Virus record (IMG/VR): IMGVR_UViG_2648501165_000013
Location: 1 to 7,011 of that record
Strand: one strand, 5' to 3'
DNA length: 7,011 nucleotides
DNA from: a virus
Taxonomy: Duplodnaviria > Heunggongvirae > Uroviricota > Caudoviricetes
The position numbers and the translations under genes were made by a program. Shown here in pieces: positions 1-7,011 of the stretch. The notes under the pieces were generated by a model. The model was not told the DNA's origin, did not search any database, and saw nothing but the letters and a program-made list of their open reading frames with translations. The stretch's first letter is position 1. Each line of letters starts with the position of its first letter.

Positions 1-1236
1 CTACGATAGCCGCGCATTCAACATGGCTACCTGTTCGTCGTTCATATCATCAATCCACATACCGTAAATTTCATACACCATCTGCGCAGTTTCATGCCCC
101 ATCTGGCTGGCTATAAATGCCGGGTTCGCTCCTGCCGTCAACAGCCAGCAGGCAAAAGTATGCCGCGTATGGTACGGATTACGGCGGCGAATACCAGCAC
201 GTTTTACTGCTGCATTCCACCTTGCCCCCAAACTGCTTACCGAGTAATAAGGTTTCTGTTTTCCGTTACACACCCTGGGCATGAAAACAAAATGCAGTTT
301 TTGCTTTTCGGTTCTGCCGTACTCCCGATGATAAAAGGTGATTTCGCTTTTGCGATGATGCCCGGTCAGTTTGTATTGCTCCTTCAGTGCTTCAAGAGCA
401 GGATGCAGTAATGTTACTGTCCGGATCCCGGCATTTGTTTTTGGGGGACCGAACATATCCAGTATCGTCAGGTTTCTTCTGACATTCACAGTTCCCTTCT
501 CGAAATCCACATCCTCCCACGCCAGAGCTGCCAGTTCCCCGTGACGAAGCCCGGAGTAAACGGCAAATTTCCACAAGTTTTGGCTCTGTCCTTTTTCACT
601 TTCCATTAATGCATTGAATTCTGTTTTAGATAACGGGTCAGGCTTTATTCTGTTTCGCTGTAATTTTTTTACTCCTTCAAATGGTTTGGTTGATATAAAT
701 CCCGACTGATACGCAAAACGTAACAGCGAACAGAGCAGGGCGATATAGTTATCAACTGTGCGCACGGTTCTTCCTTTTTTGTTGGATCTTGGATTATCCA
801 GGTAAAGCGTTTCTCCATGCAGCAGTTCATTCCGGTAGTTTAAGATATCGCTATAACGAATATATGATATCGGGGTACTTTCACAAATTATTATTCTGAG
901 TGTTTTTAATTGTGATTTCGTTTTCTTCATTGTGTTTGTTGTTAACTCTGTCTCTTTAATTTTTGTCCAGATATCACAAAGCTCCCCGAACGTTTTTATG
1001 ACTCTCGTTGTCACCATTTTTGCCCCAGTGCTGGACTGGGGAAAACGTCTTAAATACTCAAATTCACCGGAGTTTATTTCATGAACTATCAGCGCTCTTA
1101 AATTTCCGGCCTTTTTAATATTACTGTTTGTAATCTCCCAGCCTTTTAATGTTTCCCGACATCGTTTTCCTCGAAACATGAACCAGATGCGAATGTTTCT
1201 ACCTCTAATCTCGACACCTGTTGGTAATTTAGACAT
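1..1236 (-). CDS. intR: Tyrosine-type site-specific integrase, Rac prophage IntR-like (411 aa)
   Basis: Complete minus-strand ORF (ATG at 1236-1234, TAG at 3-1). Translation starts MSKLPTGVEIRGRNIRIWF and has C-terminal tyrosine-recombinase signatures (GLRHGEL, HTRHTFA, GHETAQMVYEIY with a candidate catalytic Tyr). Matches my recollection of E. coli K-12 Rac IntR. Its start lies 1 nt past the xisR stop, suggesting translational coupling. Confidence 0.92.
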   Translation of the reverse strand: MSKLPTGVEIRGRNIRIWFMFRGKRCRETLKGWEITNSNIKKAGNLRALIVHEINSGEFEYLRRFPQSSTGAKMVTTRVIKTFGELCDIWTKIKETELTTNTMKKTKSQLKTLRIIICESTPISYIRYSDILNYRNELLHGETLYLDNPRSNKKGRTVRTVDNYIALLCSLLRFAYQSGFISTKPFEGVKKLQRNRIKPDPLSKTEFNALMESEKGQSQNLWKFAVYSGLRHGELAALAWEDVDFEKGTVNVRRNLTILDMFGPPKTNAGIRTVTLLHPALEALKEQYKLTGHHRKSEITFYHREYGRTEKQKLHFVFMPRVCNGKQKPYYSVSSLGARWNAAVKRAGIRRRNPYHTRHTFACWLLTAGANPAFIASQMGHETAQMVYEIYGMWIDDMNDEQVAMLNARLS

Positions 1237-1237
1237 A

Positions 1238-1453
1238 TCATGAGTCTTTGATAAACTGATTTATCTTTGGATAGTTGTACCAGATAATCCCTCGTTTGCT
1301 GTCTGGCTTACCTAAAGGAGATACTCGTTTGAAGTGGAAGCCCTCCACCCAACAGTTCTGGCGGTATGCTTCAATTTGTCTGGCCCCCAGACCAGTGCGA
1401 AGCATCAGGCCGTATTCAACCATCCACTCTTCATTAAAGATTACTTGTGCCAT
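1238..1453 (-). CDS. xisR: Excisionase-like protein, XisR/YdaQ (71 aa)
   Basis: Minus-strand ORF translating [71 protein letters not shown], ending TGA at 1240-1238. ATG at 1453-1451 is preceded by GAGGTGA about 5 nt upstream. The ORF-track version (to 1477) starts at a TTG with no better ribosome-binding site, so the ATG is preferred. Position directly upstream of intR fits an excisionase. Confidence 0.8.
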
Positions 1454-1467
1454 CGCATCACCTCTGG

Positions 1468-1500
1468 CAGGCGCCAATGTTAGACTGAAATTGACGCCTG
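1468..1500. promoter_or_regulatory. Imperfect inverted repeat (11-bp arms, 11-bp spacer) in the xisR-intR upstream region
   Basis: caggcgccaat (1468-1478) and attgacgcctg (1490-1500) are reverse complements with one mismatch. The repeat sits 15-47 nt upstream of the xisR start, in the only sizeable intergenic gap (1454-1552). No T-run follows on either strand, so an operator is more likely than a terminator. Confidence 0.25.
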
Positions 1501-1552
1501 ATGTTGATTATTAATAATCAGCTATGAAGTTTTAATTTGAATACAATGCAAT

Positions 1553-1712
1553 TCACGAGGACTGAAGTTTCTCGCAATTAAAATTTATCAGTTTTACTTT
1601 CTGCTCTCTGGAAACGCCTGCTTCTTTTTTACCTGAGAGCATTTTTTCGCATTCTGATTTCGTTAGTTTAGATTTTGAATATCTTGTCCAGTTAGTAGGA
1701 GTGCCACCTTCC
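1553..1712 (-). CDS. Small hypothetical protein at the position of Rac ydaC; 5' end lost in the N run
   Basis: Minus-strand frame open from the N run down to TGA at 1555-1553, translating ...EGGTPTNWTRYSKSKLTKSECEKMLSGKKEAGVSREQKVKLINFNCEKLQSS. It lies between ralR and xisR as ydaC does in K-12 Rac. The start codon cannot be located because 1713-1722 is N. I do not recognise the protein sequence itself. Confidence 0.5.
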
Positions 1713-1722
1713 NNNNNNNNNN
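1713..1722. other. Run of 10 N (gap or masked bases)
   Basis: Ten consecutive n characters; separates the ydaC-position ORF from the ralR stop. Confidence 1.
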
Positions 1723-1735
1723 TGTAGCGGTAATT

Positions 1736-1942
1736 TTATACATGAACGCCTCCATTAATATTTTCAGTGGTTCGTTTATCCCATCTTTCGAGCGCTTCTT
1801 TTTCACTTCCACCATAGCCAGTTCGGGATTCGCATCCGTTGCATTTTGCCCGGTAATATCATGAAATGTCTTTCACCGTTACTGATGGACAACCACAAAA
1901 CGGACATGGTTTAACATCGTCATATCTCAAAGTTTTTGTCAT
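1736..1942 (-). pseudogene. ralR: ralR (Lar-family restriction-alleviation protein / RalR DNase toxin) interrupted by an in-frame TGA at codon 28
   Basis: Minus-strand frame from ATG 1942-1940 reads MTKTLRYDDVKPCPFCGCPSVTVKDIS, then TGA (1861-1859), then continues in the same frame as YYRAKCNGCESRTGYGGSEKEALERWDKRTTENINGGVHV to TAA at 1738-1736. Cys pairs on both sides of the stop (CPFCGC and CNGC) indicate one ancestral 68-codon gene. An alternative in-frame ATG at 1969-1967 has a better ribosome-binding site. Confidence 0.7.
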
Positions 1943-1986
1943 AAAAACTATCTCACGTTGGCGGTGCATTACACCGCCTGGCTGAA

Positions 1987-2796
1987 TTATTCTTCTGAAT
2001 TATCGATTACACTGTATTCCCCGGTTAATACAGAGGAGTCTGCCGGATCGATTGTCAGTGGTTCCTTTTCATCCATTGATACTGCACGCTGGATTTCAAT
2101 TGAGACAGGCAGGTATTTAAACAGGCGACGAATAGCCGTTTTTTTTGCCATTTCTTCCCAGTGAGTTACCCACGGCCCGTTATTACCTGCCTTACTCTGG
2201 CTGCGCACCAGTTCAATCTGTTTGCGCGTCATAACTTCAAACTGAGTCCCTCCGTCTTTCAGTCTTGCGACAGCATAGACGTGGGTCACTGGTGCATCTT
2301 CGTTTTCTCCCGGGCGGTGTATTAACTTTTCATCAAGGCCAAATTCGAAGCTAAACTCGTCACCTTCACGGACAACACGGGCTGACAGGCTGGCGATTTG
2401 ACCAGAACGGCGAGCCAGATCAATCATGCCGCGATAGCCAATGATTAGCTGAACGTTCTTTTTACCGCTCTTTTCGTTTTTATTACCAAAAGGCAGTAAA
2501 TATGCGTGGCCAAGGGCGCTACCTGGCTCAAGGCCGAGCTGTGAACACTGTACGATTGCACTGACAAAACTCATAGTGTCACAGTTTCCTAACGCTGGAA
2601 CGTTACGAATTTCTGTGGTGGCGATACGGATCATACGTTCAGCCGTCATATGGCGTGGAAGAGCTGCTGCCAGTTGCTCTTTCATTGATGGCTGGTTAAT
2701 AAAACTAATCACGTCGTTATTTTTAACTGCTGCTGGTGCACGGTTTCCCTGAGTTTTTTGCAGATCGGCTTTTGCGATTGGTGGTTGCTTAGTCAT
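1987..2796 (-). CDS. recT: RecT single-strand annealing protein (269 aa)
   Basis: Minus-strand ORF translating [50 protein letters not shown]...VIDNSEE, matching my recollection of K-12 RecT. ATG at 2796-2794 is preceded by AGGA. The start overlaps the recE stop (ATGACTAA); the ORF-track N-terminal extension to 2853 is recE 3' sequence in another frame. Confidence 0.95.
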
Positions 2797-3798
2797 TTGC
2801 ATATTCCTTAGCCCAGCGGGGCAGTGATAACGTCTTAATAGCTGGCCATTCATCGGTATTGAGGCAGTCAGCCAGGGTCCTCAGATTGCGGTGATATTCC
2901 TGCTGGCCTGCCAGTTTTGCTTCTTCGCCCATCATGAAAATCTCAATCGGGTAACGTCCGCATTCAACAGTTGTGCTGGCAACCAGAAAAACGAAAGTTG
3001 GCAGCACACCAAACTGTGCTTCATAACCGTCACTGTAGAATGCATCCTGAACGTGATAGCGGTAGTCGTAATAAGCCGTTTTGAATCGTTGAATATCCGC
3101 TGTGGTTTTCACGTCCATGATCCAGTGAAATTCAGGAATAATTTTGTCCGGACGGCACCGACACAAAATTCCTGTTTCCGGATCTTCCCAGTAAATTGAT
3201 GATTCAGCGTGTCCGGCGCTTTCCACAAGCCATTGACCCAGCGGCAAAGCCATAACGCTCTGATACATGAGTTCAATTTTCCGGCCTTCTTCGGCAGTGA
3301 TAACCGTTTTTCCTGTGCTTGCGCATTCCATCAGAAACGCTTTCTCTTCTTCTTTTCCGGCGTTTGTACGGCGGTTAAATTCAGGTGCTACGATAAAGCG
3401 GTTACTGAATTCTTCCGGTTCAAGTACACGGCAGTGGAAAGCGGTTCCTAAATCGAGCGTTTTTGTCTTTGTGGTGTCCACAGGGGCATTTTTACGCCAC
3501 AAATACAGCGCCGGAGTATCAGCAATGTCGTCGAGCTGAGACTTACTGACACCGGGACCCGCGTGGTAATTCTCATTCGAAATTCCGTAATAAATACCAG
3601 GCTCTATGTCTCCTGCGATTACGGGATCTGCGACTTCGCCAGTTTCATCACTGCAATCGCGATGCAGATCGCTGCCAGCATTCTCATTGTGCGGATGTTC
3701 AGGGCCTTCCATTTCCTCCGGCTCTTTTTCCTGAGATTCATCCAGATTTTCTTCATTAAAGGTTTCCTGATACGTTGCGTCGCCCATCACCGCACCAC
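2789..3798 (-). CDS. recE: recE 3' portion: exonuclease VIII C-terminal nuclease domain (about 336 codons); 5' side ends at an N run
   Basis: Minus-strand frame reads [60 protein letters not shown]...[24 protein letters not shown]...[11 protein letters not shown], ending TAA at 2791-2789. The PDK...IMDVK pattern fits a PD-(D/E)XK nuclease and the C-terminal sequence matches my recollection of K-12 RecE. Upstream of 3799 the ORF-track frame is not RecE. Confidence 0.9.
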
Positions 3799-3808
3799 NN
3801 NNNNNNNN
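3799..3808. other. Run of 10 N (gap or masked bases)
   Basis: Ten n characters exactly at the switch from recE sequence to bet sequence. Confidence 1.
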
Positions 3809-3950
3809 GCAGTGCGATAAACTGCGCATCGCTGGCATTGCCTTTAAATGCCGTCTGGCGAAGAGTGGCGATCAGTTCCTGCGGGTCGACAGTATCCATG
3901 CCGACACGTTCAGCCAGCTTCCCGGCCAGTGTTGCAAGTGCTGTACTCAT
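3809..3950 (-). pseudogene. bet: 5' fragment of bet (lambda Red-beta family annealing protein), first 47 codons only
   Basis: ATG at 3950-3948 with GAGGT about 9 nt upstream. Translation MSTALATLAGKLAERVGMDTVDPQELIATLRQTAFKGNASDAQFIAL matches the lambda Bet N-terminus as I recall it. The frame runs into the N run and then continues out of frame over recE sequence ([13 protein letters not shown], stop at 3758-3756). Confidence 0.8.
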
Positions 3951-3955
3951 TTGTT

Positions 3956-4255
3956 TTATACCTCTGAATCAATATCAACCTGGTGGTGAGCAATGGTTTC
4001 AACCATGTACCGGATGTGTTCTGCCATGCGTTCCTGAAATTCAACATCGTCATCAAATGCGCGACTGATTGCCTGTTTGCTGGCACCGTGGCGTTGCAAA
4101 TGGTCGATGCAGAGCGATTCAAACAGGTGCTGAGGCAGACCTTTTTCCAGGTCGTCCGCCAGTTCCGTTTCTTTTTCTTCGCGAACGATCTTCTGGTAGT
4201 GGCGTGACCATGCCAGCTCTTCAATGCGATCAAAAATCGGGCATGTGCTCATCAT
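3956..4255 (-). CDS. gam: Gam-like RecBCD inhibitor, short GamS-type form (99 aa)
   Basis: Minus-strand ORF translating [99 protein letters not shown]. The C-terminal 75 residues are near-identical to lambda Gam as I recall it; the N-terminus is divergent. A stop lies two codons upstream in frame, and the gene ends 5 nt before the bet ATG, the same gam-then-bet order as lambda. Confidence 0.85.
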
Positions 4256-4373
4256 CTGTTACCCCAAAATTTTCAAGTTTGTTTGCGATCATCATTGCAA
4301 TACCCGGAATTAATGGCGCTGAGGCTATACCTGCAGGATTCGCACATAAACCGTAAACCGCCGCAATCACCAC
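4230..4373 (-). CDS. Hypothetical small hydrophobic protein (47 aa if GTG start) overlapping the gam start; may instead be the C-terminal tail of a longer recE-like ORF
   Basis: Frame reads [47 protein letters not shown] to TGA at 4232-4230. It has a transmembrane-like hydrophobic core and overlaps gam by 26 nt, the position kil occupies in lambda. There is no in-frame ATG with a ribosome-binding site; the frame is continuous upstream with the recE-like RDCSDETGE codons. Confidence 0.3.
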
Positions 4374-4444
4374 TTGTCTTTTCCAGTCGAGTTTTTCTAA
4401 TGATGAAGCTGTTGCTTCGCCAGTTTCATCACTGCAATCGCGAT

Positions 4445-4454
4445 NNNNNNNNNN
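4445..4454. other. Run of 10 N (gap or masked bases)
   Basis: Ten n characters inside the recE-like acidic linker, between VRENE and RDCSDETGE. Confidence 1.
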
Positions 4455-4556
4455 CTCATTTTCCCGAACTTCAACCTGATTCTCGTCATCGAATGTTTCC
4501 TGATATGTTGCGTCGCCCATCACCGCACCACAGTCAGGGCAGTTATCCCCGCCAGA

Positions 4557-4719
4557 CTGACCGCAGGCGGTGCAAACTTTCTCCGTTTCCTGTTGTTGCA
4601 CTACTGGCTCAGGCTGTTTCGTTTCTGGCTCGTTTTGTTGCGTATTTTGGTCGTTCTGTTCCGTTTCTGGCTGATTCTGGTATATAGAGTCGCGGGTCTG
4701 GATCCCCTTAACCCATTTC
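4557..4719. repeat. Diverged direct repeat, copy 2 of a ~160-bp recE module ([10 protein letters not shown]...CTACGQ)
   Basis: Aligns to 4731-4890 with a 3-bp length difference and roughly 75% amino-acid identity ([54 protein letters not shown] versus [53 protein letters not shown]). Confidence 0.8.
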
Positions 4720-4729
4720 NNNNNNNNNN
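4720..4729. other. Run of 10 N (gap or masked bases)
   Basis: Ten n characters exactly between the two copies of the ~160-bp module. Confidence 1.
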
Positions 4730-4730
4730 T

Positions 4731-4890
4731 CTGACCGCAGGCATTGCAGACTATTTCCGGTTTCTGTTGCACTACTGGTTCAGGTTGTTTCACATCCGGG
4801 CTGGTTTTTACAGTTTCTGGCGTGTTTTGTTCCGTTTCTGGCTGGTTCTGGTACACAGAGTCGCGAGTCTGGATCCCCTTTACCCATTTC
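4731..4890. repeat. Diverged direct repeat, copy 1 of the ~160-bp recE module ([10 protein letters not shown]...CNACGQ)
   Basis: See its partner at 4557-4719. Confidence 0.8.
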
Positions 4891-4914
4891 GGATCGTTCG
4901 GGTCGCTAATCCCT

Positions 4915-5706
4915 TCAACGAACTCACCACGCGAAGCAGCCAGTAATTTGTCTGCATCGACAGGATTTTTGGGCGGAATGTTTTTCCGGGCTTCATGGAG
5001 TTCTGCCCGCAGTTTCTGATATTTTTCATCAACAGAATTTACCTGTGACTGAGCATCCAGCGGCTGCGTGTCCTGATGATGTTCAGTTGCATCCGGTTCC
5101 ACTGTTTCAGCCGTTGCCTGTTCATCTGCCATTGCGCAAGATGGTTGCAGTTTTTCTTCATCATCCTGTTTTTCTTCTTCTGTTACACGCTGCGGCATCG
5201 GGGCAGAGGAACGACCGCAGGCAATATCCACGATTTCTGGATCAGGGTTGGCATGATCAGTTTCAGTCAGTACTTTGTTCAGATATTCAGTGACGTGCGC
5301 GGGGATGACCTCGATCCCAATTGGTGCTTCTTTCACGGACGCAACCACGATGGCGCGGGAATAATCCAGCCCGCCAGGCATGGTGATGAATTTGTCGCGG
5401 AAAACAGAAAAGGGTGGTTTATTTTCAGCGATAATTTCCTCGACACGTTTAGCGTGTGCCGGATGAAGGTTATAAATGTCCACGTCCATTGAACGAGCCA
5501 GTACGCCAGTGGCTACGTCGCGCGCCAGTGACGTCAGATCGTGAACGAAACCTTCGCCGCGATCGGTGAGGTTCCCGCCGCCAGCATTAGCGCCGGAAGC
5601 CGTGCGCGTGATGCGTGAAACACGATTTCCTTTTCGCCATTCTTTTGTCAGAAGACCGCGATCAATGTGTTCGGTATCCAGCCAGGCTGAAATGAAATTC
5701 TTAAAT
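4915..5706. repeat. Direct repeat copy A (~792 bp) of recE coding sequence
   Basis: Aligns base for base at an offset of 802 with 5717-6508. About 475 bp (4936-5410) is essentially identical (one difference seen), the next ~300 bp is about 93% identical, and 4915-4935 differs at every third position (wobble sites). The plus-strand ORF-track entries 5045..5293 and 5847..6095 have identical translations. Confidence 0.95.
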
Positions 5707-7011
5707 NNNNNNNNNNTCAACAAATTCTCCGCGAGAGGCAGCCAGTAATTTGTCTGTATCGACAGGATTTTTGGGCGGAATGTTTTTCCGGGCTTCATGG
5801 AGTTCTGCCCGCAGTTTCTGATATTTTTCATCAACAGAATTTACCTGTGACTGAGCATCCAGCGGCTGCGTGTCCTGATGATGTTCAGTTGCATCCGGTT
5901 CCACTGTTTCAGCCGTTGCCTGTTCATCTGCCATTGCGCAAGATGGTTGCAGTTTTTCTTCATCATCCTGTTTTTCTTCTTCTGTTACACGCTGCGGCAT
6001 CGGGGCAGAGGAACGACCGCAGGCAATATCCACGATTTCTGGATCAGGGTTGGCATGATCAGTTTCAGTCAGTACTTTGTTCAGATATTCAGTGACGTGC
6101 GCGGGGATGACCTCGATCCCAATTGGTGCTTCTTTCACGGACGCAACCACGATGGCGCGGGAATAATCCAGCCCGCCAGGCATGGTGATGAATTTGTCGC
6201 GGAAAACAGAAAAGGGCGGTTTATTTTCAGCGATAATTTCCTCAATGCGTTTAGCGTGTGCCGGATGAAGGTTATAGATGTCCACGTCCATTGAACGGGC
6301 CAGAATGCCAGTGGCTACGTCGCGGGCCAGCGACGCCTGATCATGAACGAAACCTTCGCCGCGATCGGTAAGGTTCCCGCCGCCTGCATTAGCACCGGAA
6401 TCTGTGCGAGTGATGCGTGAAACACGATTCCCTTTTCGCCATTCTTTTGTTAGAAGACCGCGATCAATGTGTTCGGTGTCCAGCCAGGCTGAAATGAAAT
6501 TCTTAAATTCATAGGGCTGATGTTTTTTCGTGATAGAGAAAACTGCCTTAATTGCATCAGTCAGGCGGAGCAGGGCGGCATTATCCAGAGTTGTCGGTTC
6601 TGCCATGCCGCGTATGGCCAACAGCAGATTCTGGACATAGCTGTTTTCCTGATCCATCTCAAGAGCAGTAATGTGTTTGCGTTGTTCACGGGTGGCATGA
6701 TGCAGGTATTTCCGATCCCCGGCCGCATACGTAAAAATGTGCAGAAGACGCTGTGTGAACCGCAAAGTGGCTACAGAGACTTCGCAATCCTGGCAATCCC
6801 CGTGGGCGTCTGCCTGCGCGTTTTCTTCCAGGCCTCCCGCCAGTTCTTTGGTTTCCTGAGCATTATCCTGGTGGTGAACGTCGTCTGGCGCTGCTCCCGG
6901 TTTTAGTTCCCAGGTCATGGAGTCTTTGCTGAGTTGATAGCGGTCACTCCAGGTAAAATCGATCTCACCTTCAGGGGGCAGGTCATTAACGACAGGAAAA
7001 TTCGTGGCAAC
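5701..7011 (-). CDS. recE: recE 5' portion (RecE N-terminal, non-nuclease region); start lies beyond the window end; frame stops at 5703-5701 just past the N run
   Basis: Minus-strand frame open from the window edge reads [43 protein letters not shown]...[42 protein letters not shown]...[11 protein letters not shown]. The conserved blocks match my recollection of K-12 RecE residues from about 60 onward; the stretch between them is a divergent allele. The frame is +1 relative to copy A, so it terminates right after the junction. Confidence 0.8.
5707..5716. other. Run of 10 N (gap or masked bases)
   Basis: Ten n characters exactly at the junction of the two ~792-bp copies. Confidence 1.
5717..6508. 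repeat. Direct repeat copy B (~792 bp) of recE coding sequence
   Basis: See copy A at 4915-5706. Confidence 0.95.

Follow-up and report, generated by a model that had tools for sequence, protein, structure and literature searches.

RecE of Escherichia coli K-12 (exonuclease VIII, b1350) carries, at approximately residues 477-544, a module like that of the locus described here, located upstream of the nuclease domain; it shares with RecE proteins of the window type the N-terminal PF06630 domain and the C-terminal DUF3799/3H4R domain. The nuclease domain (PDB 3H4R) is the only part of RecE with a solved structure, and the N-terminal part is still called “of unknown function” in a 2023 review (PMC11611040). 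DnaQ-like nucleases and nuclease-less “RecE-2” proteins have also been described in lambdoid Rec modules (PMC12315714), and the ORF that is encoded by pieces D and C of the window (see below) is reminiscent of the latter. The Cys4 zinc ribbons and knuckles (e.g. DZR, PF12773, and the TFIIB-type ribbon) resemble the cysteine motif of the window in their two CxxC knuckles with a glycine after them, but the 7-residue spacer of the window motif is very short in comparison with a classical ribbon, and the motif looks nearer to a rubredoxin-like knuckle pair. Lastly, the pieces of the window resemble what paralogues cause in short-read E. coli assemblies, in which lambdoid prophage regions are fragmented and mis-scaffolded: the pieces are short, they stop where the sequence common to several prophages begins or ends, and N spacers of a constant length link them.

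The window, i.e. the whole stretch of 7,011 nucleotides that has been analysed, had been described, from its letters alone, as holding two adjacent, diverged copies of a Q/E/P/T-rich module of about 55 residues in the linker of RecE. We consider it very probable that this apparent duplication in tandem arose during assembly and scaffolding, by which two paralogous prophage loci have been joined, with the linker being single-copy in each of the two genes. Five N runs, each of exactly 10 N, occur in the window (1713-1722, 3799-3808, 4445-4454, 4720-4729 and 5707-5716), splitting it into six contig-like pieces, A to F. The pieces and the features around the junction of pieces E and D are listed below; L001 and L002 are the loci of the genomes 13E0780 and 13E0725, respectively, and L004-L011 are eight loci that encode the exact IntR protein.

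Piece A: 1-1712, minus strand, the end of Rac with DUF1187, xisR and intR; 100% identical to L004-L011.
Piece B: 1723-3798, minus strand, the RecE PD-(D/E)XK nuclease domain, recT and ralR; 100% identical to L002 4396-6471.
Piece C: 3809-4444, minus strand, the last part of a RecE-family ORF that has a hydrophobic tail and no nuclease domain; then gam of the lambda type and bet up to codon 47.
Piece D: 4455-4719, minus strand, 100% identical to L001 4001-4265 in the complete genome 13E0780; the allele of a recE'-gam-bet-exo prophage.
Conserved segment and start of the acidic spacer: 4455-4529, minus strand, closing piece D; its homologue in piece B is 3722-3798 (84%).
Module copy 2: 4530-4718, minus strand, in piece D; conserved head, heptad spacer and complete C-x2-C-x7-C-x2-C motif.
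Tandem repeat: 4614-4679, minus strand, 3.1 copies of a 21-nt unit that encodes heptads, as detected by Tandem Repeats Finder.
Spacer between pieces E and D: 4720-4729, no strand, a 10-N scaffold spacer, unsized.
Module copy 1: 4731-4889, minus strand (4889->4731), the last 53 codons of piece E; conserved head, five heptads and CNACGQ.
Piece E: 4730-5706, minus strand, the middle of a Rac-type recE, ending at CNACGQ.
Piece F: 5717-7011, minus strand, the 5' two-thirds of a recE copy, ending at ...GEFV.

Both modules are thus present where the original prediction had placed them, but they belong to two loci and are not in tandem in one gene. The aligned part of copy 2 corresponds to the first 54 codons of piece D (4718->4557), and its C-x2-C-x7-C-x2-C motif is complete, as predicted, with the cysteine codons located within 4574->4530 on the minus strand. 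The two copies are identical at 39 of 54 amino acids (72%, E=2e-25) and at 79% of the nucleotides over 164 nt (E=5e-35), a likeness that, as judged from these alignments, is far above chance. The reading of the two copies as a tandem had been made dependent on the N run 4720-4729, and this run is indeed the scaffold join of pieces E and D: the two copies occur on no single uninterrupted sequence.

A true, in-frame tandem duplication of the module in the recE gene of this strain, with the N run hiding a few bases, would agree with the reading frame, which is kept across 4720-4729 (as happens in one of three cases by chance), with the divergence of the copies (72% at the protein level, as is expected of old duplicates) and with the tolerance of the linker to changes in length. 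The borders of the copies argue against it, since copy 1 is cut where piece E ends, after the first CxxC-GQ and before the second CxxC, while copy 2 opens exactly at KW, where piece D begins. The overlap between pieces E and D (79% over 164 nt) also reaches exactly to the piece ends, and a like pattern is seen at other N junctions, which is a further argument against a duplication that is particular to this one: piece F 5717-6508 and piece E 4915-5706 are 96% identical over 792 nt, piece B 3722-3798 and piece D 4455-4531 are 84% identical over 77 nt, with the homology extending up to the piece ends, and the last 30 nt of piece C are the same as piece B 3634-3663. Taking this evidence together with that of the complete genomes and of the homologues, presented below, we regard a true duplication as most improbable.

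As the last 792 nt of piece F are 96% identical to piece E, piece F is a second, paralogous copy and not the upstream continuation of piece E; the reading frame shifts across the F|E join, and the C|B join makes bet, at codon 47, run directly into the interior of recE. Both joins are biologically senseless if they are taken as contiguous DNA. The minus-strand ORF of 534 amino acids at 4230-5834, which crosses the N runs 4445-4454 and 4720-4729 and enters 5707-5716, is chimeric, and so is any domain count that is taken across the 10-N runs of the window. On the plus strand, the ORFs 4283-4687 and 4593-4946 (117-134 amino acids) read through the low-complexity linker in antisense and are very likely not genes. 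Behind the N run 1713-1722, no more than 8 nt of the DUF1187 gene are missing; the collinearity of pieces A and B is otherwise perfect there, and, in contrast to the other four joins, their adjacency is true.

The positions of the pieces in complete genomes fall into two arrangements. In 13E0780, piece D is followed by 58 nt and then by piece C (99.7% identical to L001 4324-4959), collinear and upstream of gam-bet-exo; the ORF that pieces D and C encode is annotated in RefSeq as “RecE family ... missing C-terminus” and is followed by gam, bet and the lambda exonuclease. This hybrid prophage, of the D/C type, adjoins yebY and not ttcA, and piece D is 100% identical in three closed isolates from cattle. 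Sequence like that of piece F is found ahead of piece D in the complete genomes. In 13E0725 and five further assemblies, piece E is followed by 24 nt, piece B (100%), 8 nt and piece A (99.9-100%), and piece B is also 100% identical to L005 and four other loci. The order of the Rac locus, according to the annotation of L002 and L004-L011, is recE (890 amino acids)-recT-ralR-xisR-intR-ttcA; the eight loci with the exact IntR protein are free of N runs, and they show pieces A and B as 100% collinear and recE as a single ORF of 890 amino acids. From column 1256 of the alignment onward, the tail of piece E and the Rac-type recE of L005 have the same letter wherever the alleles vary. Piece D is identical to a locus that leads on to gam-bet, and the tail of piece E to the Rac allele that continues into piece B, contrary to what a tandem duplication within one gene would show.

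The flanks of the remaining junctions (3799-3808, 4720-4729 and 5707-5716) are neighbours in none of the genomes that were examined. Where complete genomes allow a junction to be traced, the real sequence behind the N run is 8, 24, 24 or 58 nt long, and from these lengths we conclude that the runs are fixed placeholders, and neither sized gaps nor masks. The uniform length of exactly 10 N had been the point in favour of equal-length masks placed over contiguous sequence; with none of the missing lengths being 10 nt, and with the flanks of the other three runs adjacent in no genome examined, this reading retains virtually no likelihood, the coordinate arithmetic at the traceable junctions ruling it out. 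The 24 nt that are absent between pieces E and B (CTGGCGGGGATAACTGCCCTGACT) belong to sequence that the two loci share without a difference, which is where a short-read assembly graph would branch.

The explanation that we favour for the window is the following. The source E. coli genome, or sample, would contain at least two paralogous early-left operons of the recE type: the first would be Rac at ttcA, with the full-length recE-recT-ralR-xisR-intR, and the second a Rac/lambda hybrid prophage, with the 5' part of recE and the linker followed by a short hydrophobic tail and then by gam-bet-exo. With the two loci being 80-100% identical in patches, the short-read contigs would have broken where the loci converge or diverge, and the fragments would then have been strung together according to their homology, with a spacer of always 10 N at each join; read along the genes, the order is F, E, D, C, B, A, and this order is also compatible with a reference-guided ordering, as far as can be inferred from it. 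The true paths would be E->B->A for Rac and F-like->D->C for the hybrid prophage, and the E|D junction would bring together two alleles, from Rac and from the hybrid prophage, of a single stretch of linker. The real order of the linker would be a conserved KWVKG segment, three to seven heptads, one C-x2-C-x7-C-x2-C motif with its conserved flank, and a C-terminal effector.

In comparison with any single complete genome, pieces E and F are 97-99% identical and have no perfect match, being mosaic alleles, so the exact source loci of these two pieces are inferred from relatives. The differences between them occur in blocks that match, alternately, the alleles of L005 and L001 or that of L011, and this pattern, as read from the alignment, suggests gene conversion or recombination among the prophage copies of recE. 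It is conceivable that the two alleles come from two strains (a mixed or contaminated sample, or a metagenome bin), in which case the join would still be an artefact: the mosaic pieces, which match no single complete genome exactly, would fit such an origin, as would the perfect identity of piece D in only the three cattle isolates and of pieces A and B in other assemblies. However, many copies per genome are usual in prophage-rich E. coli, with up to eight copies of the linker stretch in one genome, in different prophages, and three to six in many STEC entries; moreover, the two types of locus use different attachment sites, so one genome suffices. With Rac at ttcA and the hybrid prophage next to yebY, both loci can coexist in one genome, and an origin from two strains is distinctly unlikely. 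Two paralogous loci joined by scaffolding remain our preferred explanation.

The number of modules per gene in homologous proteins agrees with a single-copy linker. The original prediction had given one module for K-12 RecE, and this is correct: the RecE proteins of L001, L002 and K-12 MG1655 have one KWVKG segment and one C4 motif each, located in K-12 at residue 477 and at Cys517/520/528/531, respectively. The homologues come from a search of 5.8 billion proteins, from which the 120 best cluster representatives were taken; exactly one C4 motif is found in 113 of them and two in none, while the remaining seven are either truncated before the end of the motif (four) or have one cysteine replaced (three). 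At the nucleotide level, a 442-nt query that spans both modules is 97-98% covered in each of the 60 best closed genomes, but the match spans only 265-268 bp, i.e. both halves of the query fall on one single copy. The absence of two C4 motifs from the 120 clusters and the single copy in the 60 genomes both speak against a tandem duplication; the copy-number variation that had been proposed for the module is not borne out, with no second copy in K-12, in the 120 clusters or in the 60 best genomes.

Hundreds to thousands of proteins annotated as “partial exonuclease” originate from contigs of 300-1000 nt, which indicates that the linker is a habitual breakpoint of assemblies. The sole protein with two KWVKG segments among the 120 representatives is P0002 (223 amino acids, from a third-party contig of 671 nt); its repeat unit is a different stretch of about 143 amino acids (QSQVNSVD...KWVKGI.TRD) and it has only one C4 motif. 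Rather than a genuine duplication, P0002 is probably one more case of paralogues fused on a short contig.

What truly varies in length in the linker is only the number of heptads, i.e. of steps of 7 residues or 21 nt. The heptads have the form (E/K)QN(S/D)(P/Q)(N/E)(A/T) and occur in three to seven copies among the alleles. Accordingly spaced lengths are seen across the family for the spacer between RD and the first cysteine, namely 23/24, 30, 37/38, 44/45 and 51 amino acids; in the modules of the window, this spacer is located at 4575-4688 and 4749-4859. K-12 has four heptads (a spacer of 30 amino acids), both alleles of the window have five (37 and 38 amino acids), and most of the “exonuclease” alleles of prophages have six. 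The 21-nt repeat is detected by Tandem Repeats Finder only in piece D and not in the more diverged copy of piece E. Replication slippage in the 21-nt array may be the cause of the variation in heptad number.

The second element of the linker, the C4 motif, is conserved to a greater degree than the heptad spacer. In the alignment of 77 sequences, C49, C52, C60, P61, D62 and C63 are invariant and the segments that flank the motif are nearly so, the mean column identity being 0.93 in the head and 0.91 in the motif segment (residues 45-76), against 0.77 in the spacer. The two CxxC pairs are 7 residues apart, and this spacing is the same in all 113 complete motifs. Conservation of the cysteines, on which the original prediction had let the idea of a zinc knuckle depend, is thereby confirmed, in a sampled diversity that is shallow, mostly Escherichia and Shigella: beside the four invariant cysteines of the alignment, one cysteine is replaced in only 3 of the 116 sequences that span the motif (P0077, P0106 and P0111). 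P0106 also has an aberrant C-terminal tail, so the sequences with a replaced cysteine may be damaged copies.

The idea of a zinc knuckle itself fares less well in comparisons with known families. The best family scores for the C4 region lie below the respective cut-offs (PF12773, DZR: E=0.006, 17.1 bits vs. a cut-off of 27.3; NF049953: E=1e-4, 21.9 bits vs. a cut-off of 130), with no zinc-ribbon family of Pfam or NCBIfam scoring above its curated threshold. Sequence searches of the PDB with the motif segment return matches only at E values of about 1 (the best at approximately 0.8); about half of these weak matches (6 of 10) are zinc-binding domains, e.g. a TFIIB-type ribbon. The AlphaFold2 models have a mean pLDDT of 51.3 for piece D (88 amino acids) and of 50.7 for the motif segment (50 amino acids); the motif region is the part of the model with the highest confidence, which is still low (pLDDT 53-59). 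No mention of a zinc site in RecE has been found in the literature on RecE and zinc. The conserved Gly, Pro and Asp residues around the knuckles, together with the four invariant cysteines and their fixed spacing and, more weakly, the sub-threshold matches to zinc-ribbon families and the zinc-binding domains among the PDB matches, are suggestive of putative zinc binding, and we consider it somewhat probable that each linker contains one predicted Zn(Cys)4 knuckle, a compact folded element within an acidic tether that is otherwise disordered. In K-12 RecE, the motif (residues 517-531) is located just outside the minimal nuclease domain, and thus it is not needed for catalysis.

The assignment of the two loci to RecE, and the proteins in which the linker recurs, have been examined by profile comparisons. 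The L002 allele, to which piece B is 100% and pieces E and F are 97-99% identical, scores 1639.7 bits against NF007259, the RecE equivalog (cut-off 1269), and the nuclease domain that is encoded by piece B matches PDB 3H4R (E=2.4e-178, residues 629-890) and PF12684 (E=1.3e-27); recT is located directly downstream of recE in Rac at ttcA (L002, L004-L011). The ORF of pieces D and C has a hydrophobic tail and is without the nuclease domain, with a score of 447 bits against NF007259 (cut-off 1269); it is therefore a RecE-derived protein and not a RecE nuclease. In this ORF (L001 2522-4535; window 3809-4444), the N-terminal domain, the heptads and the C4 motif are kept, and the hydrophobic tail stands in place of the nuclease domain. 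The RecE'-gam-bet-exo module of the 13E0780 prophage is a hybrid recombination module of Rac and lambda Red.

Four other homologues (P0121-P0123 and P0128) share with RecE the PF06630 domain, the KWVKG segment, the heptad spacer and the C4 motif, but differ from it at the C-terminus: P0121-P0123 have a 3'-5' exonuclease of the PF16473 family (Rv2179c-like, DnaQ-type), and P0128 has a hydrophobic tail of the type that is encoded by pieces D and C. The linker is fused to the PF16473 3'-5' exonuclease in many prophage genes of E. coli, and is thus common to nucleases of opposite polarity. In P0231, the cassette is located in front of the DUF3799 domain, without PF06630, while the more distant RecE proteins P0161, P0134 and P0143 have kept the conserved head segment and lack the C4 motif. 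In a profile search of 1.84 billion representatives, which is dominated by the DnaQ-like domain of some members of the alignment, the C4 motif occurs in only 9 of the 150 best representatives listed (50% clustering). The distribution of the cassette of heptads and C4 motif is narrow and modular, in agreement with the DnaQ-like nucleases and “RecE-2” proteins described for lambdoid Rec modules (PMC12315714). A protein of 703 amino acids, P0126, is an in-frame RecE(1-~523)::RecT fusion (PF06630 and RecT in Pfam) with its breakpoint inside the C4 motif (CNACGQTGGD|); it is a deletion that has removed the nuclease domain.

The duplicated module, as it was first described, is without biological meaning, being an artefact of the joining of contigs, and the single-copy module is ordinary RecE sequence, already present in K-12. 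What is left over, and is mildly interesting, is the conserved Cys4 motif upstream of the minimal nuclease domain and the polymorphism in the number of heptads. It is tempting, though on balance rather unlikely, to regard the heptads and the Cys4 motif as a portable tether cassette, in which a zinc-bound knuckle would help to account for the requirement of full-length RecE in linear-linear recombination. Such a cassette would couple, in lambdoid and Rac prophages, the N-terminal domain of RecE to at least three C-terminal effectors, namely a PD-(D/E)XK 5'-3' nuclease, a DnaQ-like 3'-5' exonuclease or a hydrophobic tail, and the length of the tether would be tuned in steps of 7 residues. The Cys4 motif and the number of heptads offer a testable handle on what full-length RecE adds.
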